A stretch of 64,000 nt of DNA from Escherichia phage vB_ESM-pEJ01. How positions within the stretch are numbered: position 1 is the first letter of the stretch; each line of letters starts with the position of its first letter. Positions 5,940-64,000 of the stretch are shown here, piece by piece. The stretch is from sequence record OP114734.1; one strand, given 5' to 3'. The translations under genes were made by a program, and so were the position numbers. Under the pieces are notes generated by a model. That model had not been told where the DNA came from. It made no database searches and worked only from the letters and a program-made list of their open reading frames with translations.

Positions 5940-7840
5940 CAAAGCAAAAGATTACACAAATTCCTGATATTTTTAATGCTGCTACATTCGATGAAATTAA
6001 AAGCGCATTAACAGACTGGATGAGAAACCAGGAAGAATTTAAAGATTTTGATTTTAATGGTGCTGGTATTAACGTATTGATGGACTTGCTCGCATATAAC
6101 ACTCTGTATATTCAGCAATTCGCTAACGCCGCGCTATATGAATCTTTTATCAGAACGGCAATTAAGCGTAGTTCAGTTGTTCAAGCCGCGCAAGATTTAG
6201 GATATTTGCCAGCAAGTAAAACTAGTGCATCGACTACAATTATGTTGCACGTAACACATCCGCGAAATCCGGCAAGTATTCGAATCCCACGAGGAACTAA
6301 ATTTATTGCAAGTGTGGATCGCCAGACTTCTTACCCGTTTGTGACTACAGAAGACGTTGTGAGCGTTTTAGGTTCAAATGGTTTATATACGCCTATGCTT
6401 AAAGTCGCACAAGGTCGTATTGTTCGTACAGAGATGTTATTTGATCCGAAGAAACAAATTCTGATCCGCGATCCTGATATTGACCGCGCTCAGGTTAAGT
6501 TGTGGGTAGATGGTGCTGAATGGAAAGACTGGACGCGAGAAAGTATTGTTAATGCAACTGGCGCTAGTAATATTTTCTATATGCGTGAAACCGTAGACGG
6601 ACATACTGAAATTTTCTTTGGTGAGGGTGAATCAACTTTATCTGCCGCTGGCGGTGCACTGGAAGCAAATTATATTGGTGGACTTAAGCCGTCAACTGGT
6701 GCTAATATTGTTATCGAATATATCAGCACTAAAGGCGCGGAAGCAAACGGTTCAGTTAATTTCACATACGCGGATACATTGGCATCAATTTCTATTGTTA
6801 AAATTATTGATAATCCGACAAATGATCGTGATTATGTCGGTGCAGATGGTGGTGGTGATCCTGAATCAATCGAACGTATCCGTGAACTTGCTCCGGTAAT
6901 GCGTGAATCTCAGCGTCGTTGTGTGACTGCTTCCGACTATGAGGCTTTTGTGTCTAGCCGTTTTGGTAGTATTGTTCAGGCGGTACAATGTTTCACCGAC
7001 CGAGAAAAACCGGGTTATGCTTTTGTTGCTGTTAAGCCTAAATCTGGCTTGCGCTTGACAACCGTTCAAAAAGAAGATATGCGGGATTATCTGGCAAAAT
7101 ATAACCTTGCCCCTATCACGCCGAGCATCATTGACCCAAACTATCTGTATATTAAACAGAATATTAAAGTTTCCTATTCAATCAATGACTTATCAGAATC
7201 AGAGCAGTGGCTGCGCGGTGCGGTTATTGATCAGATTGATGCATATTATACCGACGAAGTGGAAATTTTTAACCAGACCTTTAGTAAGTCTAAAATGCTT
7301 GCGCGTATTGACAAAGCTGATGTATCTGTGATAGGTTCTAGTGCAGAAATCGAGATGGTGCGAGAGATCGACAACTTCTATAAAGCACCGATGGCTGGAA
7401 TCAAGTTTTTAAACCAGTATAAGAGCGGAATCAAGTCTAGTTCATTCAACTTCGAAAAGGACGACAAGCAATATCCAATCCATTATGTAAGTACAGAAAT
7501 GAACAAAGAATCCGGTTTAGCTAAATTGCTGGTTGGACCTTTCCCTGTTGATTCTACAATCGCTTTACCGCACTATTCCGGCACTGATTTTGATAAAGAG
7601 GTTATTGACGGGGCGGACCTATACTTTGAGGTTGGAGAGGTTCAGCATTATGACGACCTTATTTCATGGGATCTGGGTAAACTGAATATCAATAGCGATC
7701 GCTTTACTGGTTCATATATTGAGTTGACAGCTAAACCGATTGCTGATAACATCTTTACTAAAGACGGTTCTTTGATCGTGTTTGAAAACGATCTCCGTCC
7801 TCAGTACACAACTATTAGTCTGGAGGCAATTGCTCAATGA
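5936..7840 (+). CDS. 6: baseplate wedge protein gp6
   Basis: 634 aa; synteny 5-6-7-8; ATGA overlap with neighbours. Confidence 0.9.
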
Positions 7841-50502: not shown

Positions 50503-52554
50503 TTACATTTTAAATTTATCTGGCATTGCGTCTACAGATACCAGATCAGCGATAAGCTGACGTAGAGTTGCCTTATCTGCTTTCTTACGTTCGGTTTTAG
50601 CTTCGCTAATGAAGCTGGAGAAAGACAGGTCAGAAGCAGGTTTAATAACACCTTCACGGATGAATGCATCACCGTCCGCGATCATCTCGCCAGATTCTTG
50701 TAATGCTGCCAGTTCATTTTTGTTCATAATATGTGCCTCAATGTAATAAGTTTCTTGTGAATCAGTCGATGCCGTGGCACTAGTTACCGTATCAAAGGAT
50801 AACACAACACCGCGAGGAAGTAAAATCTCGCATTCTTTGTAAGCAAATGCTTTGTTACCTACTGGCAATACAGGGATGTTTTCCGCGCCAGCAATGGAGA
50901 AAGCAACATTAGCGCCACCTTCACCGCGAGAGCCAGCCATAGAATCAACACCAGCAACGGCACTAGCCACGTTTGCATTCCAGCCGCCAAAAATGTTAGG
51001 TGCAAGGGAAGTGCTCACATAGTTTTTAAAGTAAAACGCTTTTTGCTTACGTGCAGTTTCCCACATTTGCGACCGGAAGTCCATACCACGATACAGAATA
51101 GTACCCGGATCAAGTTTAACGCCATAGTTGGAGAAGGCATTATCCAGTGCATCGCACATCTTGACCAATTCTTCTGGATCTGCGATGCCTTCAAACTCTT
51201 CCAGCTTACGGTCGGTTAGGAAGTTGTTCATATTGATGTATGCTGCATCGGCATATTCGCTCAACACAAAACCTTCCGCGCCTGGCAGATCAAGATCAAT
51301 ATCTGCCATCATTTCACCCATGTTGCTAGCAATTGCTTCAAACATACCGGACGCAACATTACGTAGGGCATCGGTTTTAATCTGGGTGATATGACTACGC
51401 AGCATTTCAGCTTTTACATCTGCTGGCATAGACTGGTCTACTCGATCCATTGCCAGGGCGGTGATCTTGTTTTCGAATACTTCCTCGCTCATGATTTCTT
51501 TTAAGCGTTTGACCGAGGCTGCGATAACTTCCGCAGACAACGGATCATATTGATCCTGAACTTTTACCAGTTCGCTTACTGCGTATTTTGCATCGGCTTC
51601 GCTTTCAAAAATAGTACGCATGAAACCATAGCGAGTGATAATATCACTTGTCCAGTCATTCAGAGAACGGGCGGTTGAACGTTCTAAGGCTTGACGGTCA
51701 ATCAGAGTATTAAACTGTTTCTTAGGTTCGGCTTCGGTGATATCTTCTTCCGGTTTAAGATTAATTTTTTCTGGATGATTCACATAGTCGCTGTTATAGG
51801 TCGCTTGAGTTTTCAGCATTTCTTCTTTAGTCAAACGAGATTTAGCCGCTACGCGTTGTTCCGCTTCCGCGTTTCGTTCTTCTTCTGACACAAGACTAGC
51901 CGCATACGCTTCATCTTTAGTCAGAGATTCACCGGTAGCCTTAGATACCCAGCGATCACCTAAATCACTTTCTACTTTAGTGAACAGGGAATCATCAAGT
52001 TTAATCCCTTTAATCTTATCAATCGCCATACCGCGACGCTTGACAACAACTAAAGCGATCTTTTTGCTGGTCATTACTTCCTGCTGGAATACTTCAAACT
52101 TCGGTGTACGACGCACCAAACGCTCTATAACGCGCTTAACCAGTTCGGTCTTACCTTTCATGCGGGATACGTTAAAACGGAACATAACAGCGTCTAATTG
52201 CGCTTTACGGGCTGTTTCCATAACCACATCAAAAGCACTTGCCATAACTGCAATCGGGTTATCACCTAGACCATTTTTAAGCTGTACAATACGACCGCTT
52301 TTGTTCATTTCGCACAGTACAACATGTGCGGTCTTGTCACCCATACGAATGATTTTAGGTGTTTTGTTGGTGAAGTTACAAAGACGGACAATCACATCTT
52401 TATCGCGTGTCTGTACTGCAAAAAGCTGTTTAGGATTCTGCTTAGGCTTTAAGCACTGTACCGGGGCAATACTACCAAAGTTTTCTTCCTCTTCCGTCAA
52501 CAGCCATTTCTCGAAAGATTCAATCATTAGATCGTCGATTTCTAAGTTAAACAT
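50503..52554 (-). CDS. alt: ADP-ribosyltransferase Alt
   Basis: 683 aa (T4 Alt 682 aa); C-terminal ART domain with ILYRG, YVSTS, ECEILLPRG; position between gene 54 and gene 30. Confidence 0.8.
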   Translation of the reverse strand: MFNLEIDDLMIESFEKWLLTEEEENFGSIAPVQCLKPKQNPKQLFAVQTRDKDVIVRLCNFTNKTPKIIRMGDKTAHVVLCEMNKSGRIVQLKNGLGDNPIAVMASAFDVVMETARKAQLDAVMFRFNVSRMKGKTELVKRVIERLVRRTPKFEVFQQEVMTSKKIALVVVKRRGMAIDKIKGIKLDDSLFTKVESDLGDRWVSKATGESLTKDEAYAASLVSEEERNAEAEQRVAAKSRLTKEEMLKTQATYNSDYVNHPEKINLKPEEDITEAEPKKQFNTLIDRQALERSTARSLNDWTSDIITRYGFMRTIFESEADAKYAVSELVKVQDQYDPLSAEVIAASVKRLKEIMSEEVFENKITALAMDRVDQSMPADVKAEMLRSHITQIKTDALRNVASGMFEAIASNMGEMMADIDLDLPGAEGFVLSEYADAAYINMNNFLTDRKLEEFEGIADPEELVKMCDALDNAFSNYGVKLDPGTILYRGMDFRSQMWETARKQKAFYFKNYVSTSLAPNIFGGWNANVASAVAGVDSMAGSRGEGGANVAFSIAGAENIPVLPVGNKAFAYKECEILLPRGVVLSFDTVTSATASTDSQETYYIEAHIMNKNELAALQESGEMIADGDAFIREGVIKPASDLSFSSFISEAKTERKKADKATLRQLIADLVSVDAMPDKFKM

Positions 52555-52597
52555 TTTATATCCTCTAGTTGATAACCTATAAACCTATATTTATGAA

Positions 52598-52620
52598 AAG
52601 GGGGCTTAACGCCCCCCTTT
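52598..52620 (-). terminator. hairpin terminator upstream of alt
   Basis: - strand hairpin GGGGGGCGUUAAGCCCCC followed by UUUU. Confidence 0.6.
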
Positions 52621-52621
52621 A

Positions 52622-52834
52622 TTATAATGCACCATCGAGCAATTGCTCTAATGTGTATCCTGAATAGTCTTTTTCAATCAGGATATATTTTCCTACTCGT
52701 TTAATACAACCGCGCATTTCAACGTATTCTGCGTAGTTGATGGTGCGAGTTGTTCCATCTTCTAGCAAAGCAGTACCGATTTCGTTAATGCGGTCATAAG
52801 TTACGTCGGTAATGATGATTTCGATGTTAGCCAT
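52622..52834 (-). CDS. hypothetical protein (70 aa)
   Basis: start moved to ATG at 52834 (RBS AAGGAG); N-terminus MANIE identical to the ORF at 54721. Confidence 0.55.
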   Translation of the reverse strand: MANIEIIITDVTYDRINEIGTALLEDGTTRTINYAEYVEMRGCIKRVGKYILIEKDYSGYTLEQLLDGAL

Positions 52835-53427: not shown

Positions 53428-53760
53428 TTATAGTCTCCTGAATGGATCATCACGTAAATCAATATCTTTTAAGAACTCATCCCATGAATGGCGGATATTA
53501 TTCTTAATTCTCCAGATAAGCGAAGGGATTGAACGCTCTCCCATCTGGAAGTATGGATCATATGATCCGTATGCCCAATATGCTACTACAATTCCGCAAT
53601 CAGTGCAATAGTATTCTATCTCGCTTGCTGGCGACCAAAGTCCATCAATATGATCACGGATCTTGCTTTCAATGTTATGACTATGGCAATCAGGGCAACG
53701 GATGCAATGACCTTGTTTGTCATAATTTGACGTTAGCGAATACTTAAACAATCTCATCAT
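53428..53760 (-). CDS. Zn-ribbon protein (110 aa)
   Basis: CIRCPDC...H and CTDCG cysteine pairs; start overlaps upstream stop by 4 nt. Confidence 0.6.
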   Translation of the reverse strand: MMRLFKYSLTSNYDKQGHCIRCPDCHSHNIESKIRDHIDGLWSPASEIEYYCTDCGIVVAYWAYGSYDPYFQMGERSIPSLIWRIKNNIRHSWDEFLKDIDLRDDPFRRL

Positions 53761-54473
53761 AGATCCTTATTGGCTTCAAATACTGCCTTTGCGAATCCTC
53801 GCGGGGTAAGTGACCTGATAGTCTTTGTTCTGGTTCCTTTCCCGCCTAGCTTAGAATGCTGTTTACTGTACCCTTTATTAATCGGCAACGGTTTCTTTTC
53901 TGGCATTATAAAGCCTTGTCCGGTCCATAAGCAAGTCTTTTTCGGGTACATATCACGGGCGGCAATATACTCAGGAAACGTAGGATGTATATCATCTTCC
54001 GGCAAATAACCGCCATATTCCCACGGGTGGAACATGTAATCAGGCTTACGCCACATGCTAGAGATAACGCTTACAGGATTCTCTATCATGTAGGGAACTC
54101 CTAGCCATTCACCCAAATAAGCGGTTATTTTAGCTGCCCGTACATCATGAACTTGAATCAACGGTCCTTGTTCTAGTTTCTTTCGTTCAAAGTGCGCAGC
54201 GCCACTAACAGCTAAATTGGTGCACGGTGGGAATGCAAAGATAATATCCGGTTTCCCCCATTCAAGGTCCATTGCTCTTTCCAGCCAGTTCAAATCAATC
54301 CAGGTGTTTACATAGGTAATGTTTTGATGTTCAAATCGGGTATTATATTTTTTGTATGTACCGTGGTCGCCATCGTCAGCATTAAAGCAGATCACCTTAT
54401 GACCTGCTTTAGCCCATTCTAACCCCATTATCCCCGATCCGTCAAAGTTGCAGAATATTAATTTTTGTTTCAC
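53757..54473 (-). CDS. compact DNA C5-cytosine methyltransferase-like protein (no large target-recognition domain)
   Basis: motif I FCNFDGSGIMG, motif IV FAFPPCTNLAVSGA (Pro-Cys), motif VI MIENPVS, motif IX-like IRSLTPRGFAKA in canonical order; GTG start overlapping upstream TGA. Confidence 0.65.
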   Translation of the reverse strand: MKQKLIFCNFDGSGIMGLEWAKAGHKVICFNADDGDHGTYKKYNTRFEHQNITYVNTWIDLNWLERAMDLEWGKPDIIFAFPPCTNLAVSGAAHFERKKLEQGPLIQVHDVRAAKITAYLGEWLGVPYMIENPVSVISSMWRKPDYMFHPWEYGGYLPEDDIHPTFPEYIAARDMYPKKTCLWTGQGFIMPEKKPLPINKGYSKQHSKLGGKGTRTKTIRSLTPRGFAKAVFEANKDL

Positions 54474-54804: not shown

Positions 54805-54972
54805 TTATTTGTTAATTTCTGGTGCGTTGCTAGGATAGTAACCTTCTTTAACTCCGAGATATTTCGCAACCATCCCTACAATCTTCTGTGCTACTACAAT
54901 GTCAAATTTCAGATAATCTTCGCCGTGGGTTTCAATGATATATGCTTCACATGCTGCTTTAGTCTCGAACAT
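54805..54972 (-). CDS. small protein (55 aa), paralog of 58083-58250
   Basis: manually found ORF MFETKAACEAYIIETHGEDYLKFDIVVAQKIVGMVAKYLGVKEGYYPSNAPEINK; RBS GGAGAA. Confidence 0.55.
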   Translation of the reverse strand: MFETKAACEAYIIETHGEDYLKFDIVVAQKIVGMVAKYLGVKEGYYPSNAPEINK

Positions 54973-55005
54973 TTTGATTCTCCTATTTCGTTTCGTTATG
55001 TGTGT

Positions 55006-55034
55006 ATTATAGGGGATCTCCAGATCCCCGTCAA
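55006..55034 (-). promoter_or_regulatory. PeSL-like early promoter unit 3 (TTGACG-N17-TATAAT)
   Basis: palindromic spacer GGGGATCTGGAGATCCC with two GATC. Confidence 0.6.
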
Positions 55035-55048
55035 CAACTTTTTTAAAA

Positions 55049-55330
55049 TTATTCGTGATTAGTTTCGATGTTGTGCATTTTGCACCAGTTCAGCCAATCA
55101 CCCAGATCCTGATAGTTAATGCTTTTATCTGCTGCCATCGTTTTTGTCTTGATACCCATATGTGCGTTATGAGTAAGCATTTTTACAGTGAACTCAATTT
55201 TATCACCTTTAGCTTTAACATCAACCAGTTTGGTCCACTGGCTACCAGCGCCGCGAATGTTCATACCAACGATGTTTCCGATGTATGCTTCTTTGTTTTT
55301 CAGGATTTCGGTTGCTTTGATGAATTTCAT
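55049..55330 (-). CDS. hypothetical protein (93 aa)
   Basis: ATG with RBS GGAGAA downstream of PeSL unit 4. Confidence 0.55.
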   Translation of the reverse strand: MKFIKATEILKNKEAYIGNIVGMNIRGAGSQWTKLVDVKAKGDKIEFTVKMLTHNAHMGIKTKTMAADKSINYQDLGDWLNWCKMHNIETNHE

Positions 55331-55400: not shown

Positions 55401-55670
55401 TTAGATATTTTCAGAAATAAATTTTAAAACTTGACGTAAATGTTTCTCATCTTTGATAGTCGCCGGAAGTTCTTCTTTTACTTCCTGTGCAAGATAGATA
55501 TTTCCGTTCCAAGTGAAAGATCCGTCTTCGTTTACGCGATAGCTGAACATCCACTCGCAATCATTTTCGATTTCATATACACACAGAAGGGTGTAATCGT
55601 TAAAGCTATTGATTTCAAGGTCGAAGCCGTGACGTTTTGCAAAGTTGGTAGTGGTTTTAGTCAGCGCCAT
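55401..55670 (-). CDS. hypothetical protein (89 aa)
   Basis: ATG with RBS GGAGAA downstream of PeSL unit 5. Confidence 0.55.
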   Translation of the reverse strand: MALTKTTTNFAKRHGFDLEINSFNDYTLLCVYEIENDCEWMFSYRVNEDGSFTWNGNIYLAQEVKEELPATIKDEKHLRQVLKFISENI

Positions 55671-55710
55671 TGTTTGATTCTCCTAAGTGGTATCTCGTTT
55701 CGATGGGTGT

Positions 55711-55739
55711 ATTATGCTATAGGCGTGATCTGGTGTCAA
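55711..55739 (-). promoter_or_regulatory. PeSL-like early promoter unit 5 (TTGACA-N17-CATAAT)
   Basis: leader nearly identical to unit 6. Confidence 0.5.
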
Positions 55740-55763
55740 CAACTTTTTTAAAATTTTATGCAA

Positions 55764-55788
55764 TAAAAAGCCGACACTAAGGTCGGCT
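55764..55788 (-). terminator. intrinsic terminator after family member A
   Basis: perfect 7-bp stem AGCCGAC/GTCGGCT, U-run on - strand. Confidence 0.65.
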
Positions 55789-55795
55789 AATAAAA

Positions 55796-56104
55796 TCATT
55801 TAGACAAATAATCATTCAGTGCAATCCGGTCGGCATGTTCCGGCGTTACGTCAATCGCAATCAGTTTAACGCGTGCTTTCTTGCGACCTGGGTTTTCTCG
55901 TAACCAGTGCTCATGACCGTGAACATTTTTATACTGCGATGCTTCTTCGAAGGTACGGATCGGACCTGGGTAATCAGCGTAAAGGATCTCTAGGTCATCG
56001 GTGATGTAAAAATATACGTTGTAATTGCTGTTCTCTAGTTTAAGCAGAGACATTCGGAACATTGGGAGATTTTCGCGGGTAAATTCAAAGATATTATCTT
56101 TCAT
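55796..56104 (-). CDS. H-x-H-W family small protein A (102 aa)
   Basis: start moved to ATG at 56104 (RBS GAGGA); C-terminal HGHEHWLRENPGRKKARVKLIAIDVTPEHADRI. Confidence 0.55.
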   Translation of the reverse strand: MKDNIFEFTRENLPMFRMSLLKLENSNYNVYFYITDDLEILYADYPGPIRTFEEASQYKNVHGHEHWLRENPGRKKARVKLIAIDVTPEHADRIALNDYLSK

Positions 56105-56130
56105 AGTATTATCCTCAATAGTTGGATGAA

Positions 56131-56150
56131 ACGGGGGCTTAACGCCCCGT
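56131..56150 (-). other. hairpin of the GGGGC-TTAAC-GCCCC family
   Basis: same stem-loop as at 52601-52620 and, in the gene-sense orientation, 20002-20018. Confidence 0.4.
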
Positions 56151-56153
56151 ATA

Positions 56154-56441
56154 TTAAAACAGCCCTTCCTGTACACCGTAGTAGAGTTCATCGCTGATAA
56201 TTTCATTAATGCGACGGTGTGCATATTCCTGATTTGCGAAGTTGTCAGCAAGTTCTACTTTAGTTTCGCCGTCATGAGTCCATTTAGTGATAACTTTACC
56301 ATCTGCAAATTTGAAGTTGAACTCTTTAGCTACCGCATCGCGTACCAGACGTGCAAACTTGTTGTTGCGGATTGCATTGTCGGTTTCGTGTGCAGCGTGA
56401 GCGAATTTGTTAACTTTCAGAGTGATAGTAATGTATGCCAT
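56154..56441 (-). CDS. hypothetical protein (95 aa), paralog of 59727-60038
   Basis: RLVRDAVAKEFNFK versus REVRKALAKEFNTK in 59727-60038; RBS GGAGAA. Confidence 0.55.
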   Translation of the reverse strand: MAYITITLKVNKFAHAAHETDNAIRNNKFARLVRDAVAKEFNFKFADGKVITKWTHDGETKVELADNFANQEYAHRRINEIISDELYYGVQEGLF

Positions 56442-56487
56442 AATTTGATTCTCCTAGTTAGAAAGTGTATCTCGTTTCGATGGGTGT

Positions 56488-56516
56488 ATTATGCTATACA
56501 CCCGATCTTATGTCAA
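56488..56516 (-). promoter_or_regulatory. PeSL-like early promoter unit 6 (TTGACA-N17-CATAAT)
   Basis: leader nearly identical to unit 5. Confidence 0.5.
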
Positions 56517-56522
56517 CACTTT

Positions 56523-56801
56523 TTATAAAATAATTTTTTGATATTTTTCTATGATGTTCGTGTAAGTCACATCAACCGCTATCACCGTTGCTTCGAATCC
56601 ACCGTTTAGCCAATGGCTATGGTCATGATCGTGAAAGAAACCAAGACCAGTACGAAGACCTTCTTTATATTCGGCGCGTACATTTAGATCATCATCGATA
56701 AACAGATAAAACCATGAATTTTTACTAGGATTGATGATACAACCTTTCAGATTAGGGAGAATATCACGACTAAGAATAAACTTATCACCTACTTTGAACA
56801 T
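56523..56801 (-). CDS. H-x-H-W family small protein B (92 aa)
   Basis: start moved to ATG at 56801 (RBS GAGGAA); C-terminal HDHDHSHWLNGGFEATVIAVDV. Confidence 0.55.
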   Translation of the reverse strand: MFKVGDKFILSRDILPNLKGCIINPSKNSWFYLFIDDDLNVRAEYKEGLRTGLGFFHDHDHSHWLNGGFEATVIAVDVTYTNIIEKYQKIIL

Positions 56802-56815
56802 AATATTTTCCTCAC

Positions 56816-57124
56816 TTATAAAGTTTGACCGTTGTTTTTCGCGTAATGCTGAATGCGTGCTTGATCTGCTTCCGCTGGTGATAGATTCCATGCAACCACT
56901 ACAACTTCTGACGCATCGTCATCCGTTTCTGATACCCAATGATTGTGATTCATACAGTTATTTGCTATCGAGTGAGCAAATGATTTCATCACTGGAGACG
57001 TATAATCATAGTAACGGATTTTCAGATTTTCATCAACATACAAGTAGATCGTATAAGGTTTATATTCAGTAACCAGTAACAGACAGTTACGCAATTCTGG
57101 GAAAATCTTTTTAGTTAATTTCAT
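56816..57124 (-). CDS. H-x-H-W family small protein C (102 aa)
   Basis: start moved to ATG at 57124 (RBS GAGGA); C-terminal HNHWVSETDDDASEVVVVAWNLSPAEADQ. Confidence 0.55.
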   Translation of the reverse strand: MKLTKKIFPELRNCLLLVTEYKPYTIYLYVDENLKIRYYDYTSPVMKSFAHSIANNCMNHNHWVSETDDDASEVVVVAWNLSPAEADQARIQHYAKNNGQTL

Positions 57125-57125
57125 T

Positions 57126-57344
57126 TTATAATCCTCGGTCTCGGCTATAGTACACGGTACGCCATACAATTTCATGTTTCGTGTCGCTCCAGCACACGAT
57201 CTCATTTACTCTTAAATCTTTGTTATCAACAAAAGATGAACATTGTGACGCTTCTTTCATCATTTTATCTGCTGTTTTCTCATCAAATACAGCACAGATT
57301 TCTTTATACACTCGATAATCTTTGAATTGACTCTGAATACCCAT
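57126..57344 (-). CDS. hypothetical protein (72 aa), tandem paralog of 57304-57561
   Basis: SQFKDYRVYKEI...KMMKEASQC versus SKFKEYKAYQQI...KMMEDASKC. Confidence 0.5.
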   Translation of the reverse strand: MGIQSQFKDYRVYKEICAVFDEKTADKMMKEASQCSSFVDNKDLRVNEIVCWSDTKHEIVWRTVYYSRDRGL

Positions 57345-57561
57345 AATTAACACCATTCCAACCAATTGTTTTTGAGAAAACGTCTATCCACTGTTGAGTG
57401 TAGCATGTTTCTTTCCATGATACAATACGAGTGGAATAATGGTTTTTGTTTCCAGAAAAGGACGGGCATTTTGATGCATCTTCCATCATCTTTTCGGCGA
57501 ACTCTGGTGCGTATACTCGCAGGATCTGTTGATATGCTTTGTATTCTTTAAATTTGCTCAT
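57304..57561 (-). CDS. hypothetical protein (about 85 aa), tandem paralog of 57126-57344
   Basis: overlaps the downstream paralog by about 40 nt; start ambiguous (57561 or 57567). Confidence 0.5.
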   Translation of the reverse strand: MSKFKEYKAYQQILRVYAPEFAEKMMEDASKCPSFSGNKNHYSTRIVSWKETCYTQQWIDVFSKTIGWNGVNYGYSESIQRLSSV

Positions 57562-57826
57562 AATCATTCACTACCTTATCAGCTTCTTTTGTTGTTTTTA
57601 CATCAACTGCGATAACTCGTAAAGGTTCGTCATGGTTCCACCAGTGGTCATGAATATCAGCTTGTGATTTATCACCAAAGGAATCACGAATATCATTTTT
57701 ACATTTATAGCTAATGTGACCTTCATAGTCAACATAAAGGTAATTATCGAAAATCGGCGTTTTTAAGATCATACCGAAAAATCTTTCTTTGTGTGTCTTA
57801 TCCAGCGTTACAGTAATTCGCATCAT
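57548..57826 (-). CDS. H-x-H-W family small protein D (92 aa)
   Basis: RBS AAGAGGAA; C-terminal IHDHWWNHDEPLRVIAVDVKTTKEADKV. Confidence 0.55.
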   Translation of the reverse strand: MMRITVTLDKTHKERFFGMILKTPIFDNYLYVDYEGHISYKCKNDIRDSFGDKSQADIHDHWWNHDEPLRVIAVDVKTTKEADKVVNDYEQI

Positions 57827-57838
57827 AATATATTCCTC

Positions 57839-58018
57839 TTAGAAAGGGATGGTCATTTCTTGAGCTTGTACATTCTCGTTAGGATTAAACTTCATCCAAC
57901 CGATATTGTCTACCAGCATATGTACATTTTTATCATATCCTACGTGAGTAGTCAACACTAAATGTGCTTTACCTTCAACGATGATTTCCATGTACTTCTG
58001 AACTTCGATAGCTTTCAT
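57839..58018 (-). CDS. hypothetical small protein (59 aa)
   Basis: manually found ORF MKAIEVQKYMEII...; RBS GGAGAA downstream of PeSL unit 7. Confidence 0.45.
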   Translation of the reverse strand: MKAIEVQKYMEIIVEGKAHLVLTTHVGYDKNVHMLVDNIGWMKFNPNENVQAQEMTIPF

Positions 58019-58050
58019 TTTGATTCTCCGTTTGTTGTCTTGATGGGAGT

Positions 58051-58079
58051 ATCTTACTACTCCCTTTAATCATTGTCAA
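58051..58079 (-). promoter_or_regulatory. PeSL-like early promoter unit 7 (TTGACA-N17-TAAGAT)
   Basis: palindrome GGGAGTA...TACTCCC overlaps the -10. Confidence 0.5.
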
Positions 58080-58082
58080 CTA

Positions 58083-58250
58083 TTATTTGTTAATTTCCGG
58101 TGCGTTGCTCGGATAGTAACCTTCTTTAACACCTAGATATTTTGCAACCATTCCGGTGATCTTCTGTGCTACTACGATATCGAATTTCAGGTAGTCTTCA
58201 CCGTGGTTTGCTACAATGTATGCTTCGCATTCTGCTTTAGTCTGGAACAT
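58083..58250 (-). CDS. small protein (55 aa), paralog of 54805-54972
   Basis: start moved to ATG at 58250; MFQTKAECEAYIVANHGEDYLKFDIVVAQKITGMVAKYLGVKEGYYPSNAPEINK. Confidence 0.55.
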   Translation of the reverse strand: MFQTKAECEAYIVANHGEDYLKFDIVVAQKITGMVAKYLGVKEGYYPSNAPEINK

Positions 58251-58284
58251 TTTTGATTCTCCTATATCTCGTTGGTATGTGTGC

Positions 58285-58313
58285 ATTATAGGGGATCGGT
58301 GATCCCCTGTCAA
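58285..58313 (-). promoter_or_regulatory. PeSL-like early promoter unit 8 (TTGACA-N17-TATAAT)
   Basis: spacer GGGGATCACCGATCCCC on the - strand, same palindrome arms as unit 1 with inverted centre. Confidence 0.6.
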
Positions 58314-58320
58314 CAACTTT

Positions 58321-58623
58321 TTATTCTTCATCTTTATCTTGATATGCGTACTTCATAAATTTGTCTGCTACTTTGTCCGCGTTTTCAGGTTCTACGTCTG
58401 ACGCTAGGACAACAGCTAGTTCGGTTTTGTCGTTTCCATCATACCAATGATTATGAGTGTCGTTTTCTTCGATATAAAACGAATCGTTTGGAGTTGTGCG
58501 ACAATATACGTCTAAATTCCCATCGATATAAAAGATCCAATCCGAATACAAAATGATTGTTTTAGCAAGATTTTTATTGTCTCTTACAAAAGGTTCCGCG
58601 ACAAATAGCTTAGTTTGTTCCAT
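58321..58623 (-). CDS. H-x-H-W family small protein E (100 aa)
   Basis: start moved to ATG at 58623 (RBS GAGGAA); C-terminal HNHWYDGNDKTELAVVLASDVEPENADKV. Confidence 0.55.
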   Translation of the reverse strand: MEQTKLFVAEPFVRDNKNLAKTIILYSDWIFYIDGNLDVYCRTTPNDSFYIEENDTHNHWYDGNDKTELAVVLASDVEPENADKVADKFMKYAYQDKDEE

Positions 58624-58639
58624 AATATTTTCCTCAAAA

Positions 58640-58828
58640 TTATACAGCTTCGTAAACTTCCCAATGTTCAGCACCAACACGCTTAACGAAAAGGTTTTCT
58701 TTGATGTTATTCATAAACGTCTGGATGGATTTAATGCGGTTGGAAGGTTTCCAGTCTTCGTTGGCATTGCGGTGATACATAATATTACCAGTTCGCTTAT
58801 ATTCAGCAACCATTTTAAGACCACACAT
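58640..58828 (-). CDS. hypothetical protein (62 aa)
   Basis: ATG with RBS GAGGA; preceded by hairpin 58848-58866. Confidence 0.5.
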   Translation of the reverse strand: MCGLKMVAEYKRTGNIMYHRNANEDWKPSNRIKSIQTFMNNIKENLFVKRVGAEHWEVYEAV

Positions 58829-58847
58829 AATATTATCCTCAATTTGT

Positions 58848-58866
58848 GGGAGAGTATTACCCTCCC
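58848..58866 (-). other. hairpin GGGAGAGTATTACCCTCCC (degenerate PeSL-like element)
   Basis: palindrome containing a TAATAC -10-like hexamer; no clear -35. Confidence 0.35.
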
Positions 58867-58884
58867 GATTATTGTTATACTACA

Positions 58885-59187
58885 TTACGCAAAATGGCGT
58901 GTCAATGCTTCTTTTGCTGTTCCGCTAAGATTCTCGATCTCTCCTGGCATAACATCAACCGCCAGAACTTCTACAACATCCTCTGATCCTAACCAGTGAG
59001 TATGACCTTTGTAGAACTTGATATCCCATTTATCGCTATCGCTAGCCCACCACACATCACCGTCTATAAAGTTGATGTAAAGCACACTACGACACATTGA
59101 ATTAGTTACTTTCAATACTGCGCCTTTCATCTCTTCCACGGTATGGTCTTCCATTTTGAAGACCTCGCCTACCTTAACTTTTGCCAT
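58885..59187 (-). CDS. H-x-H-W family small protein F (100 aa)
   Basis: start moved to ATG at 59187 (RBS GGAG); C-terminal GHTHWLGSEDVVEVLAVDVMPGEIEN. Confidence 0.55.
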   Translation of the reverse strand: MAKVKVGEVFKMEDHTVEEMKGAVLKVTNSMCRSVLYINFIDGDVWWASDSDKWDIKFYKGHTHWLGSEDVVEVLAVDVMPGEIENLSGTAKEALTRHFA

Positions 59188-59188
59188 G

Positions 59189-59455
59189 TTACATGCTCCG
59201 AATATGTTTAGATGCATCTTCCAGTTCGTCGATAGTGACACTGTGAGCCAGTAAGTGTACTGGTTGTGGTTCTTCACCTTCCATAGTATTGATCAGATGA
59301 CCGTTTCCTGGGTGGAATGTATCGTTGCCGTTCCAAATAGCATACACATCATCTTCTGTTACGTAGATAATAAGTCCAATCGGTGATTCTGGTAATTGAA
59401 AAATTTTACCCACTGCATCTTTGCGATTGTTTACGATATCTTTTACTGTCTTCAT
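59189..59455 (-). CDS. hypothetical protein G (88 aa), possibly a divergent family member
   Basis: RBS GAGAGG; YVTEDDVYAIW...H.....LLAHSV..DELEDA loosely resembles the family layout. Confidence 0.5.
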   Translation of the reverse strand: MKTVKDIVNNRKDAVGKIFQLPESPIGLIIYVTEDDVYAIWNGNDTFHPGNGHLINTMEGEEPQPVHLLAHSVTIDELEDASKHIRSM

Positions 59456-59474
59456 TTAGTTACCTCTCGTTAAA

Positions 59475-59654
59475 TTACATCACAATCACGCCAGCCGTTG
59501 AAAGTTGATGTTTCAACTGAGCATTTTCTGCTACTGTCAAATCAATGATTTCTTGTGACGCTGCAATCATATAGCCATTGGTGATATTGTTTTGCATCAG
59601 TTCAATGGTCTCTTCGTTGTAGCGGATTTTAGCGATGATTTCGTTGAAGTTCAT
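59475..59654 (-). CDS. hypothetical small protein (59 aa)
   Basis: manually found ORF MNFNEIIAKIRYNEE...; RBS GGAGAA downstream of PeSL unit 10. Confidence 0.45.
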   Translation of the reverse strand: MNFNEIIAKIRYNEETIELMQNNITNGYMIAASQEIIDLTVAENAQLKHQLSTAGVIVM

Positions 59655-59688
59655 AATTGATTCTCCTAGTTCTTTTCGGTATGTGTGT

Positions 59689-59718
59689 AGTATAGGGGAG
59701 TTTAACCTCCCCTGTCAA
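59689..59718 (-). promoter_or_regulatory. PeSL-like early promoter unit 10 (TTGACA-N18-TATACT)
   Basis: palindromic spacer GGGGAGGTTAAACTCCCC. Confidence 0.55.
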
Positions 59719-59726
59719 CAACTTTT

Positions 59727-60038
59727 TTAAAGTTTTTCCATGATAACGGTCATAATTACATCTTCTGCGCGAGCGGTCAGATTATCGGCGTCAGCATGTG
59801 GGCGGTTGGTTGTTACAGAGATAACACCGTTGCGCACTGGTTTAATATTGATATCAAGATGGTCCGCGAAACGTTCGCCAGTTACAGAATGAATTTTGGT
59901 GTTAAATTCTTTTGCCAGTGCCTTGCGAACTTCACGAATCAGGGTAGCGTTTTTCAGTTGGTTCTCCGCGCTCATGGTCTTCTGGGTGTTCATGGTTCCG
60001 TCGAAGTCAATCATTGGCAGCGTTACGATGTATTTCAT
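59727..60038 (-). CDS. hypothetical protein (103 aa), paralog of 56154-56441
   Basis: RBS GGAGAA downstream of PeSL unit 11; shared REVRKALAKEFNTK region. Confidence 0.55.
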   Translation of the reverse strand: MKYIVTLPMIDFDGTMNTQKTMSAENQLKNATLIREVRKALAKEFNTKIHSVTGERFADHLDINIKPVRNGVISVTTNRPHADADNLTARAEDVIMTVIMEKL

Positions 60039-60083
60039 TTTTGATTCTCCGTTTAAGAAAGTATGTTTCGTTTTGATGTGTGT

Positions 60084-60112
60084 AGTATAGGGGATATGTG
60101 ATCCCCTGTCAA
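60084..60112 (-). promoter_or_regulatory. PeSL-like early promoter unit 11 (TTGACA-N17-TATACT)
   Basis: palindromic spacer GGGGATCACATATCCCC. Confidence 0.55.
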
Positions 60113-60125
60113 CAACTTTTTTGAA

Positions 60126-60602
60126 TTATTTTTCTTGATGCTCGCGCTCGTACTTTTCGAAATAAAATTCTACTGGCTGGTCATGAATTGACAGCAAGCC
60201 AAAGCGTTTAGCCGCTCGCAATCCCATATTGCGCTGAATGTACTTCTGGAAGTTCTCGCGTATACACTTACGCCAGTATTCTAAGCCCATACAGCTTTTA
60301 TAAAGATTGCATTGCACACACGCCGGATTCATGTTATCAAGTATATCATGTTCCGGTTTATGCATTCCTACAACCTTATACTTCCACGATCCATCATCAT
60401 TACGGGCAATTCGTCCATTTTCATCATAGACTACCTTTGAGCGTCGCAATACTGGTTTGATGTGGTCTGCGTGCCAGCGATCCCCTAGTTCCTCGCCACA
60501 ATAGGCACAACGTCCACCGTATTTCATTTTCAGGATCTGGCGTTGCTCTTTCTTTGACAATTTTTTAGGTTTAGGGGCTTTCGCCCCTTCATTATCACAC
60601 AT
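60126..60602 (-). CDS. HNH endonuclease-family protein
   Basis: C-x2-C...H-A-D-H...C-x2-C (CAYCGEE, WHADHIKP, CVQCN); ATG overlaps the ligase stop by 8 nt. Confidence 0.7.
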   Translation of the reverse strand: MCDNEGAKAPKPKKLSKKEQRQILKMKYGGRCAYCGEELGDRWHADHIKPVLRRSKVVYDENGRIARNDDGSWKYKVVGMHKPEHDILDNMNPACVQCNLYKSCMGLEYWRKCIRENFQKYIQRNMGLRAAKRFGLLSIHDQPVEFYFEKYEREHQEK

Positions 60603-62091
60603 CGAATACCTCTTTTACTGTATTTGCAGTGGTCTTGTCGTAGCGAATACGTTTGATGATTGGGAGAAATAAAGAGAACTCCGGTTCATCTTCTTTACGT
60701 GATTTGCTGCGGATATACCCGTTGCATGTCATCTCAATGACTTTTCCGATCAGGTTATGCCGATCAGCCCATAACATTTCTCGGTCAAGTTCATTTCGAC
60801 GATCGAACGGAATTACACGTTCAATACCATCATCACATTTTTCGGTTGTAGTGTCGGTTAATCCCGATCCGGTGTTAGTCATCATTCGTCCGCACGCACT
60901 ACGGACAGTAAAACCGCCTACCTTATTAGGATCTTTACTATGCGGATATACATCAACAATTTCAGCGTCGAAGTCAATCACTTCTTTAAATTTAACCTGG
61001 TCTTTACTACGGCGATCTTCAAATACACCATGTAAATTTTTAAGGATAATACCTTCTAAGCCCATGTTTACATAGCGATGATATACTTCGCGAGCTTCAT
61101 CGATATTGTTAACTACAGTGTTTTCGATTATCTGAACACGAGGATCGTTAAGTTCTTCAACAATCTGTTTTAGTTCTTCGAATCGATCTTTATATTGCTT
61201 AGTTGCTTTCTCGTTTCCGTAATACACATCACGGTCGATAACATCCCAGACAGTATAAACAATACATTGGGCTTCTTCTTTTGGAATAGTTCCTTTAAGT
61301 GATTTGTTGAGGATACCATTTCCGGTCTGACGATCTGCAACAACGGATTCTTTCACTGCTTCCGCTACTGGCGTTAATGGCATTTCCTCTTCTTCAAATA
61401 TCCATGACAGAGTACCATCATAAACGCTTTCAACGAAGTTCTGCGCTGGTGTTTGCGAAAGGGTAGGCATATATACCAATTCGCCATCTAGAACAATTCC
61501 ACGGCCTCGTAGACGCTCTAAAACCGCAAACAAATCATCAAGTCCCTGATAGGTATTACCTGAACGGGTATAGATTGCTAATGTTTCCCCGTCAATATCA
61601 GCCATACCACGAGCGCCATCGCTTTTAAGTTGTGCATACGCCGGATACTTGATATTAGCAATAGTCTTATCAGAACATGACGATGCAAGGTGGCACGGCT
61701 GCTGGGGGATCAGTTTCTTCCATACCTTGTTTGCAGTGGTAGCGGAACAACCGCATTCCAGATCACGATTCAGGACCATCATTGCAACTTTAGCATCATC
61801 TTCTGACAAGCAAGTCAGAGTATCGGTAACTAGCTGTAATGCTGCGTTACCAGTTACTTGACGCGTGGCAAGTTTATTTTTAAAGACCTGTAATGCACCG
61901 GATAAAGACAATACAGACGAATAACGCGATGGTTTATCGTATTTCTTTACGCCAAACGTAACCTGTTTGCAATATGCCAGATAAAAGCATTCTTTCAGAG
62001 TTTCATTGCTTGCGGATTCTTTCAGGATCTTTTCTTTCAGCGATGTTTTGTCGGTCGCTGCAAGCTGGTTAATGATATTAAGAATTGACAT
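60595..62091 (-). CDS. 30: ATP-dependent DNA ligase gp30
   Basis: start moved to ATG at 62091 (RBS GAGGTG; track used GTG); adenylation motif KSDGAR, RDLECG and LASS motifs match T4 DNA ligase. Confidence 0.9.
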   Translation of the reverse strand: MSILNIINQLAATDKTSLKEKILKESASNETLKECFYLAYCKQVTFGVKKYDKPSRYSSVLSLSGALQVFKNKLATRQVTGNAALQLVTDTLTCLSEDDAKVAMMVLNRDLECGCSATTANKVWKKLIPQQPCHLASSCSDKTIANIKYPAYAQLKSDGARGMADIDGETLAIYTRSGNTYQGLDDLFAVLERLRGRGIVLDGELVYMPTLSQTPAQNFVESVYDGTLSWIFEEEEMPLTPVAEAVKESVVADRQTGNGILNKSLKGTIPKEEAQCIVYTVWDVIDRDVYYGNEKATKQYKDRFEELKQIVEELNDPRVQIIENTVVNNIDEAREVYHRYVNMGLEGIILKNLHGVFEDRRSKDQVKFKEVIDFDAEIVDVYPHSKDPNKVGGFTVRSACGRMMTNTGSGLTDTTTEKCDDGIERVIPFDRRNELDREMLWADRHNLIGKVIEMTCNGYIRSKSRKEDEPEFSLFLPIIKRIRYDKTTANTVKEVFDV

Positions 62092-62557
62092 TTTCACCTC
62101 GTTTTGTTAAACGTTCACGAATATCATTGAGGATACTACAAAATTCCGATTCAGTCAATATAGTCTTTAACGGATCAGTTCCACCTATGCTATGACGTAA
62201 TTTCTTATTTCCGGTAGCGAGTAATGCTTTACAAAATTCTGGGTTATTCCGTGCCATCGTAACAAATGCCAGATGTACCAGTCTGTAATAATGCTCACTC
62301 ATTCGATGAATCTGGCGACCCTGAAAATATAACAGGTGATTCTCAATCTTTTCAGTTCTTCCGGTTCTTTTTGCTTTGCCACCGTGCATCAAAAAGATTT
62401 CTCTTTGTCTCTGGGGGTTCTTAAATCTTAGCCCCTGTAAAAATCCTTCTGTGCTGTTAATATCGCAACCAAATAAACGGAATGGTCTTTTATTGAAATT
62501 ACTCAATTCACCCGATGGATAAGGTCCACCCGCATAGATATCAATTTCAGAAGTCAT
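62078..62557 (-). CDS. NADAR (YbiA-like, DUF1768) domain protein
   Basis: IYAGGPYPSGELSNF, STEGFLQGLRF and ALLATG parallel the E. coli YbiA motifs (FSNF, TSEHYFQAQKF, ALLLAT); stop overlaps the ligase start. Confidence 0.75.
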   Translation of the reverse strand: MTSEIDIYAGGPYPSGELSNFNKRPFRLFGCDINSTEGFLQGLRFKNPQRQREIFLMHGGKAKRTGRTEKIENHLLYFQGRQIHRMSEHYYRLVHLAFVTMARNNPEFCKALLATGNKKLRHSIGGTDPLKTILTESEFCSILNDIRERLTKRGENVNS

Positions 62558-63154: not shown

Positions 63155-63766
63155 TTATTTATATTTCGCGACCTTTGGATTTCGCCGCAGACCGGAATGT
63201 ATTTGCGCTATACAACAATAAGAAACATTAAACATATCAGCTATAATTTGCTTCTTAACTTTTCCTTTAAGCCGCATTATTTCTTCGACTTGCGCATTTG
63301 TCAGTTTTGCCCGTGAGTGGTTTTCACCGACATTGTTATTGAGTCCAGTTCTAAATGAATGTCTCATATTTTCTAGTAAGGTTACTATTTCTAGATTCCA
63401 CACATAATTGCAGGTTTTTACACCATTGATGTGATTAACCTCAAGTCCGGTAACGTCTCCTAGAAATGCATTTGCTACAAGTCGATGTATCTTTTCGGCT
63501 TTAACTGAGATTTTACCATTGTCGTTTTGTTTTGACAATGTTGAATAATAATATCCATATCGGTCTAAAATTGGTTTTATTATTTTACCAGCACGTTTTT
63601 GTTTTACGAGCTTAATATTACCGGGAGAAACTTCTCTATAAAATTCGATACTTCGGTCAATAGATCTCAACCTACCATAATTAGAGATTTCATACCACGG
63701 ATAACCTACAGCTTGTCTCCATTCTTCCGGTGCTGGTAATATGATATTATCATCTTTTGTTTCCAT
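63155..63766 (-). CDS. HNH homing endonuclease (NUMOD4 / HNH / C-terminal HTH)
   Basis: WYEISNYGRLRS (NUMOD4-like), HRLVANAFLG...EVNHINGVKT (HNH), C-terminal helix-turn-helix-like NVSYCCIAQIHSG; start moved to ATG at 63766 (track used TTG). Confidence 0.75.
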   Translation of the reverse strand: METKDDNIILPAPEEWRQAVGYPWYEISNYGRLRSIDRSIEFYREVSPGNIKLVKQKRAGKIIKPILDRYGYYYSTLSKQNDNGKISVKAEKIHRLVANAFLGDVTGLEVNHINGVKTCNYVWNLEIVTLLENMRHSFRTGLNNNVGENHSRAKLTNAQVEEIMRLKGKVKKQIIADMFNVSYCCIAQIHSGLRRNPKVAKYK

Positions 63767-63768
63767 TG

Positions 63769-64000
63769 TCAACTGCCACCGTGAATTTCGACGATCTGCG
63801 CTGGAGTCAGCCCGTCCACATTAATCAGACTATCAAGCCCAAAACTACGGAAACCTTCAACTGCAATTTCATATACTGGCAAAGATGTTTCTGATTCTTT
63901 ACGCGGTTTTTCAACATTCGGAACTAACCACTTTTCGTATGTTTCGAAAGGCATCAGTGCCGGATCTCGCGTGGCGATCATATCTCGGACAGTACCATCT
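63769..64000 (-). CDS. partial CDS (C-terminal part; 5' end lies beyond the window)
   Basis: reading frame stays open to the window edge; identity not recognised. Confidence 0.4.
   Translation of the reverse strand, partial: DGTVRDMIATRDPALMPFETYEKWLVPNVEKPRKESETSLPVYEIAVEGFRSFGLDSLINVDGLTPAQIVEIHGGS

Follow-up and report, generated by a model that had tools for sequence, protein, structure and literature searches.

The locus

The 64,000-nucleotide stretch of Escherichia phage vB_ESM-pEJ01 analysed here (OP114734.1; referred to as the window) contains two pairs of small open reading frames (ORFs) that had been singled out as paralogues in a preliminary description, made from the letters of the sequence. 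All four ORFs were present on the minus strand at the coordinates first given for them. Pair 1 (family 1) consists of copy A (56154-56441; 95 amino acids, aa), the orthologue of RB49p198, and copy B (59727-60038; 103 aa), the orthologue of RB49p210, which is ORFan210 of RB49 and phi1. Pair 2 (family 2) consists of an upstream copy (57304-57561), corresponding to RB49p202, and a downstream copy (57126-57344; 72 aa), corresponding to RB49p201. The upstream copy has 85 aa in the window and 69 aa in most relatives. All four RB49 counterparts are annotated as hypothetical proteins, and the window contains exactly two members of each family. The comparisons below argue that both pairs are true paralogues, set among promoter-early stem-loops (PeSLs), which are sigma-70 promoter cassettes.

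The 5.5-kb region around the four genes was 92-97% identical in nucleotide sequence to 58 phage records, all of them Krischvirus. Judged from these matches the source of the window is a Krischvirus, an RB49-like T-even coliphage; it rests on nucleotide identities of 95-97% to Krischvirus genomes, and the RB49 annotation agrees with this identity.

Homology of the dispersed pair

The shared region noticed in pair 1 was confirmed as a motif with 10 identities in 14 positions, between residues 31-44 of copy A and 35-48 of copy B. BLASTP, run all-against-all and pairwise, returned no alignment between the two members, probably because two-hit seeding fails on so short a match. Smith-Waterman alignment gave a score of 57, compared with 26.2±4.7 for shuffled sequences; 1 of 5000 shuffles reached 57 (Gumbel p~1e-4). 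Among the 325 pairings of 26 small ORFs the pair ranked 14th, right behind the accepted family pairs. The all-against-all comparison that had been proposed as a check therefore recovers pair 2 by BLASTP and pair 1 by Smith-Waterman alignment, not by BLASTP.

Both proteins matched phrog_7474 over their full length (copy A, residues 1-95, E = 4.8e-43; copy B, residues 1-103, E = 2.9e-43). Searches with tblastn from copy A and from copy B converged on a single gene of SP18-type (Gaprivervirus) phages, with E = 3e-7 and 2e-5. SP18 gp146 aligned to the two copies with Smith-Waterman scores of 129 and 111 (p~1e-11 and ~1e-10) and is a mosaic, its N-terminus being like that of copy B and its C-terminus (SDELYYGVQE) like that of copy A. 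A profile made from copy-A-type and SP18-type sequences only recovered copy B (E = 3.4e-9, 82 positions), and hhalign of the two family 1 subfamilies gave a probability of 82% (E 1e-5). The N-termini of the copies also correspond (MAYITITL and MKYIVTL). Loss of significance on proper alignment, named beforehand as grounds for dropping the claim, was thus seen neither in the direct alignment nor in the leave-one-out profile.

Structure prediction, likewise proposed in advance, gave models with a shared fold. Copy A was modelled by AlphaFold2 (pLDDT 82.6, pTM 0.77) as a beta-alpha-beta-beta-alpha arrangement, and this model was matched to an independent BFVD model of RB49p210 with TM-scores of 0.66/0.58 (probability 0.95). 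The profile, SP18-bridge and structure matches together make the homology secure. By these comparisons pair 1 appears as an old, dispersed duplication of about 25-33% identity, for proof of which profiles or the SP18 bridge are required.

The tandem pair

The members of pair 2 were aligned by BLASTP with 25 identities in 63 positions (40%, E = 2e-16) and by Smith-Waterman with a score of 131, compared with 24.8±4.6 for shuffles. Both matched phrog_8471 over their full length (57126-57344, E = 2e-33; 57304-57561, E = 1.8e-35). The genes lie head to tail with a 41-nt overlap (57304-57344), within one transcription unit and with no PeSL separating them, so that their description as tandem, overlapping paralogues stands.

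The upstream copy was 88-94% identical in amino acid sequence across Krischvirus (nine relatives compared), with dN/dS of about 0.1. In eight of the nine it has 69 aa (71 with an extra MIM start) and ends in ..KTLEWC/S. Its start at 57561 is conserved in relatives; RB49 is annotated with a start equivalent to 57567. The window, RB49 and the Makalu phages have in common a 5-nt insertion near the 3' end, which shifts the frame past the ancestral stop of the 69-aa protein and adds a 16-residue tail reaching into the next gene. The overlap of pair 2 is accordingly a derived feature of the RB49 lineage. The AlphaFold2 model shows a confidently predicted helical domain at residues 10-67 (pLDDT about 95); the tail, residues 70-87, has pLDDT below 50 and is predicted to be disordered.

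The downstream copy occurs as two alleles among relatives, 63-65% identical in amino acid sequence. Between these dS is 1.5-1.8 (saturated) and dN/dS 0.15-0.18, compared with a dS of 0.3-0.46 for the adjacent upstream copy. The saturated dS and low dN/dS point to an old module exchanged by recombination and not to fast adaptive change. In G2494 a nonsense codon lies at codon 8 of the downstream copy. In JSE the copy and the next gene have been replaced together, at the same TAATTATG junction, and both JSE and KMB43 are without it. The nonsense codon and the JSE replacement indicate that the downstream copy is dispensable. A divergent metagenomic T-even contig (L006) carries one family 2 gene, 39% identical to the upstream and 29% to the downstream copy.

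Conservation and distribution

Copy A was listed at 100% amino acid identity in 32 records and at 99% or more in 46; it differs from its RB49 counterpart by 9 synonymous and 0 non-synonymous changes. Copy B is 98-100% identical in most Krischvirus genomes (dN/dS 0.09). All four genes are under purifying selection, with dN/dS of 0-0.18. In RB49 itself 18 nt are duplicated in tandem within ORF210 (L002 6019-6348; ERFADH-ERFADH), a repeat that the window and most relatives lack; for this reason the RB49 protein has 109 instead of 103 aa and 93.6% identity.

Contig L006 has a copy A orthologue, 71% identical, in a differing gene order, and its family 1 is of the copy-A type only. An L006 gene at the position equivalent to ORF210 (7200-7433, 77 aa) was considered as a hidden family 1 member and rejected, since it had no match to the family hidden Markov model (HMM). 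SP18 gp146, with its homologues in Gaprivervirus phages (VR20/VR25/VR26 type), shows homology to both copies of family 1 (identities of 45% and 32%). Like those copies, the gene is small, belongs to the early region and follows a stem-loop with the same leader; it is annotated as 'similar to RB49p198'. It differs in being present once per genome and in its position, a different variable region that lies between the tRNA cluster and e.6.

No more than 2, 1 and 5 clusters came back from a word-indexed search of 5.8 billion proteins. An exhaustive hmmsearch of 1.84 billion representatives with family 1 returned three phage subfamilies, one truncated variant and one spurious match; the last, an ankyrin-repeat protein (P0010), was matched through a repeated helix and was rejected. 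In these searches both families were limited to a few T-even lineages. Inspection of related phages, suggested at the outset, accordingly gave both pairs across Krischvirus and a narrow spread beyond it.

Promoter cassettes

Nine minus-strand promoters matched 11-12 of 12 sigma-70 consensus positions. Eight are intergenic, and the ninth (58313) lies only inside the part of a mechanical ORF (82 aa) that precedes the real start, 58250. A weaker promoter at 58079 (10/12) brings the total to ten PeSL cassettes in the gene island described below. The cassettes fall into two repeat families, D1 and D2, of 65-80 nt and share the layout aaaaagttg-TTGACA-[GGGGATC..GATCCCC stem-loop]-TATAAT-acacacataccgaaacgaa-GGAGAATCAA-ATG. 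The word AAGTTGTTGACA occurs 7 times (0.4 expected), always within 52.9-60.1 kb; GGAGAATCAA occurs 10 times (0.2 expected), within the same interval but for one occurrence at 16.7 kb.

Copy B is bracketed by two PeSLs of repeat family D1 on the minus strand, 394-395 bp apart. The upstream one (60052-60131) contains promoter 60112-60084 (11/12; TTGACA-GGGGATCACATATCCCC-TATACT, followed by the GGAGAATCAA leader). The downstream one (59657-59736) contains promoter 59718-59689 (11/12), which is also the promoter of gene 59475-59654. A stem-loop lies between the -35 box and the -10 box in each (GGGGAGGTTAAACTCCCC at 59718, GGGGATCACATATCCCC at 60112). Copy A is preceded by a minus-strand PeSL of repeat family D2 (56467-56531; promoter 56516-56488, 11/12; stem GGGTGTAT..ATACACCC), in which the stem-loop overlaps the -10 box; its subclass is different from that of copy B. 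Promoters 60112, 59718 and 56516 have aaaaagtKg ahead and GGAGAATCAA-ATG after them. They show the published features of a PeSL (Arbiol et al., 2010): consensus sigma-70 boxes preceded by an AT-rich tract, an intergenic position immediately ahead of an ORFan, and a stable GC-rich stem-loop inside the promoter or overlapping it. Pair 2 belongs to a six-gene unit headed by a PeSL-type promoter, again on the minus strand (58030-58094; promoter 58079-58051, 10/12; D2 repeat). Promoter, repeat and motif scans found no PeSL between 58079 and 56516.

About 51 PeSLs per genome have been described in RB49 and phi1, clustered in hyperplastic regions and as a rule directly ahead of an ORFan (PMC2839356). 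Promoter activity was demonstrated, as was terminator activity for PeSL211/210 (PMC2839356). Recombination between the PeSLs that flank ORFan210 frees a mini-circle of ~400 bp, found as monomer and dimer in infected cells and virions (PMC2839356). By analogy, the 394-bp PeSL-to-PeSL unit round copy B would equal this published ORF210 mini-circle.

A GC-rich stem-loop, GGGGCGTTAAGCCCC, lies directly downstream of copy A (56126-56148, minus strand; repeat D10, 96% identical to 52593-52615) and is likely to be a terminator or attenuator. In contig L006 the cassette of PeSL, family 1 gene and GC stem-loop is kept, GGGGCGAAAGCGCCCC after the orthologue being the equivalent stem-loop. The 23-nt GC stem-loops of the GGGGGCTTAACGCCCC type, 96% identical, are thus found between gene 52622-52834 and the start of alt (52593-52615) and after ORF198 (56126-56148). 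They resemble terminator modules without a promoter, as distinct from PeSLs.

The gene island and its variation

From 52 to 64 kb of the window every gene is on the minus strand. An island of 19 short genes lies between an HNH endonuclease gene (60126-60602) and a DNA methyltransferase-like gene (53757-54473). It is flanked further by DNA ligase (60595-62097), on the same side as the HNH gene, and by an Alt-type ADP-ribosyltransferase (50503-52554, minus strand) on the methyltransferase side. The gene layout agreed with the RB49 and JSE annotations and with contig L006. This is the PeSL-rich, ligase-to-alt hyperplastic region already described for RB49-type phages. Two free-standing HNH-type endonuclease genes (63155-63772 and 60126-60602) flank the gp31 / 30.x / ligase block and are possibly homing endonucleases that add to the mosaicism of the region.

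Most genes of the island had been assigned to small multi-copy families, and four families do supply 12 of the 19: six H-x-H-W genes, two from each of pairs 1 and 2, and two from a 55-aa pair. The H-x-H-W genes, grouped by all-against-all BLASTP (55796-56104, 56523-56801, 56816-57124, 57548-57826, 58321-58623 and 58885-59187; minus strand), are interleaved with both pairs across 55796-59187, and the family HMM matched all six, each with E <1e-26. The best match outside the family was ORF 59189-59455 (88 aa), nearly full length but not significant (E = 0.2), so that it was not accepted as a seventh member. It had no PHROG or Pfam match and may be a degenerate seventh copy that has lost the H-x-H-W motif. 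The H-x-H-W gene directly upstream of pair 2 (57548-57826) and its phi1 counterpart (L014 786-1070) are only 56% identical, and dS between them is saturated (1.9); this is another old allelic module swap beside well-conserved neighbours.

The copies of the 55-aa pair (54805-54972 and 58083-58250, both on the minus strand) are 89% identical in amino acid sequence. They lie in a 172-nt DNA repeat of 85% nucleotide identity, with a PeSL ahead of each copy. The pair is a more recent duplication of a PeSL cassette in which both copies have retained the PeSL.

The genes correspond, at the same locus, to the hyperplastic-region ORFans with PeSLs of RB49 and phi1 (PMC2839356; Comeau et al., 2014, PMC4122927), ORF198, ORF201, ORF202 and ORFan210 being 93-100% identical in amino acid sequence. 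The PeSL elements (AT-rich tract, TTGACA, GC stem-loop, -10 box and Shine-Dalgarno sequence) are found in the window too. The window differs from RB49 in being without ORFan192, ORF195-196.1 and ORF211. Between the orthologues of ORF191 and ORF193 it has one PeSL (54972-55049), and therefore is without RB49's ORFan192 (L002 551-1027); a gene of 474-477 nt occupies this slot in G2494 and RB49. The phi1-type topology without ORFan192 has been explained by PeSL x PeSL excision (Arbiol et al., PMC2839356).

In the window a PeSL alone separates the HNH gene from ORFan210 (60038-60126). The same slot holds ORF211 in RB49 (L002 6436-6780; 345 nt, 'integron ORF homologue') and an unrelated 86-aa predicted membrane protein in G2494 (L001 7540-7800), and it is a hot spot of cassette replacement. 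The interval between ORF194 and ORF197 is about 500 nt longer in RB49 (L002 1713-2343) than in the window (55670-55796) and there contains RB49p195, p196 and p196.1, a further presence/absence difference at the level of cassettes, beside PeSL 55739.

Interpretation

The locus as a whole is well explained as a set of PeSL-driven early genes in a hyperplastic region of an RB49-like phage, with true paralogue pairs that are dispersed in family 1 and tandem in family 2, and we regard this reading as likely. The second copy of family 1 may have arisen by PeSL x PeSL recombination, a one-gene mini-circle being excised and re-inserted at another PeSL; this copy would derive from the same genome or else from a co-infecting relative, and the two would afterwards have diverged over a long time. 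The PeSL flanks, the cassette in L006, the relocation in SP18 and the 55-aa pair fit the published modular shuffling by PeSL excision and re-insertion for the dispersed copies. Family 2 would have come from a local tandem duplication, the downstream copy being later allele-swapped, knocked out or replaced in some lineages.

Several points weigh against this account. The family 1 copies carry different PeSL subclasses and no similarity is left in their flanking DNA. The PeSL papers (PMC2839356; PMC4122927), as searched, do not mention duplication or paralogy. The alignments behind the structure models were very shallow, with 5 and 7 sequences. A literature search by the locus tags or PHROG identifiers of the four genes returned no papers.

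A possible alternative, less probable than not but deserving weight, is that the members of pair 1 are xenologues, one gene having come in as a PeSL cassette by horizontal transfer from another T-even phage. It would account for the depth of the divergence (25-33% identity), for the different PeSL subclasses that head the copies, and for related lineages with one type only, the SP18-type phages having a single intermediate or mosaic gene and L006 the copy-A type. Encapsidated mini-circles have moreover been proposed as vehicles of horizontal transfer (PMC2839356). Against it, essentially all Krischvirus genomes have both copies, fixed and with almost no variation, so that any acquisition of a cassette must predate the genus, and no donor lineage with a close homologue of copy B was found among the 5.8 billion proteins or 1.84 billion representatives.

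As to function, neither family had a significant match in sequence searches of Pfam, NCBIfam and PDB. Both phrog_7474 and phrog_8471 are labelled 'unknown function', a PHROG being a product of clustering and not a characterised family. The four products are small and without catalytic motifs. From these two properties, together with early transcription, purifying selection and the module-level turnover of the most dispensable copy, we infer that they are most likely binding modulators of host or phage macromolecules. They would be made immediately after infection and act as small binding proteins in host takeover or counter-defence, the paralogues having diverged towards different partners.

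The predicted beta-alpha-beta-beta-alpha fold of family 1 is closest to that of DinI and, in the models, has the elements of a DinI fold. The most concrete guess that follows from it, weakly supported, is binding to a filament of the RecA family (host RecA or phage UvsX). That family 1 comprises true, highly diverged DinI members that regulate RecA/UvsX filaments during infection, and thereby for instance block SOS or RecA-dependent responses, is unlikely. There was no Pfam match to the DinI family (PF06183) at E up to 10. Probabilities in hhalign were 0.4% for E. coli DinI (sequence verified against 1ghh) and 1% for an alignment of eight DinI/Tum proteins, and the DinI HMM was not significant either. 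Family 1 is thus without detectable sequence relationship to DinI (PDB 1ghh, 7ywa) or to phage DinI-like/Tum proteins. It also appears to be less acidic, with a whole-protein pI of 5.1-8.1 compared with 4.74. At the C-terminus, where the strongly acidic helix of DinI mimics DNA and makes contact with RecA, the last 25 residues have 5-7 D+E compared with 8 in DinI. The DinI homologues in the phage collection were all from temperate phages; DinI homologues belong to temperate phages and bacteria and are SOS-controlled, whereas family 1 consists of immediate-early genes of a virulent T-even phage.

'DinI-like' is therefore used here for a modelled resemblance of fold, a testable lead and not a classification, and its chance of being borne out is small. 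With similarly slim prospects, family 1 might be an unrecognised, extremely diverged DinI-like module of virulent T-even phages, with paralogues specialised by filament or partner (host RecA or phage UvsX). If this were true, family 1 would blunt RecA-dependent host responses or tune the recombination-dependent replication of the phage. Membership of the tautomerase superfamily (4-OT / MIF) was also considered for family 1 and was rejected because the catalytic Pro1 is absent.

It is improbable that pseudogene decay or a sequencing artefact explains the downstream copy of pair 2 or the extended 85-aa form of the upstream copy. The nonsense codon in G2494, the absence of the downstream copy from JSE and KMB43, the disordered tail produced by the frameshifting insertion, and a frameshifted metagenomic variant of the upstream gene (P0008) would favour it. 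The downstream copy nevertheless keeps its low dN/dS even between two old alleles and is intact in eight of the nine surveyed genomes in which it occurs. Between the window and Makalu_002, the two extended forms translated, the tail differs by a single residue, and 26 records match the region at 95% nucleotide identity or more; the tail is therefore no sequencing error in the window. In P0008 itself the frame shifts after ..SGNKK to that of alternative ORF 57347-57469 of the window, which makes it a natural frameshift mutant or else an error of assembly.

That the ORFs of pair 1 are unrelated and share a chance or convergent helix motif, as the missing BLASTP alignment and a direct local alignment of just 24-29 residues might suggest, is effectively refuted, and its probability is minute, in view of full-length phrog_7474 matches at about 1e-43, the SP18 gp146 bridge (p about 1e-10 to 1e-11 to each member), the leave-one-out profile, the corresponding N-termini and the superposition of independent predicted structures (TM about 0.6).

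Significance

The genes, the PHROG families, the PeSL system and the ORF210 mini-circle are already on record, and novelty is low for that reason. The new elements are the explicit paralogy of ORF198 and ORFan210, the evolutionary history of ORF201/202 and the weak lead of a DinI-like fold, and only these. Motifs spotted by eye proved to be real homology, missed by BLASTP for one pair, and could be placed in the published framework of modular shuffling by PeSLs. Decay or module-level swapping of the tandem pair was documented across about 55 genomes, and the DinI-like fold offers a testable lead on an early protein that is otherwise an orphan. One island holds both ORFan210, the model gene of mini-circles, and ORF198, its diverged second copy, an outcome that the model of mini-circle re-insertion predicted but that had not been documented.

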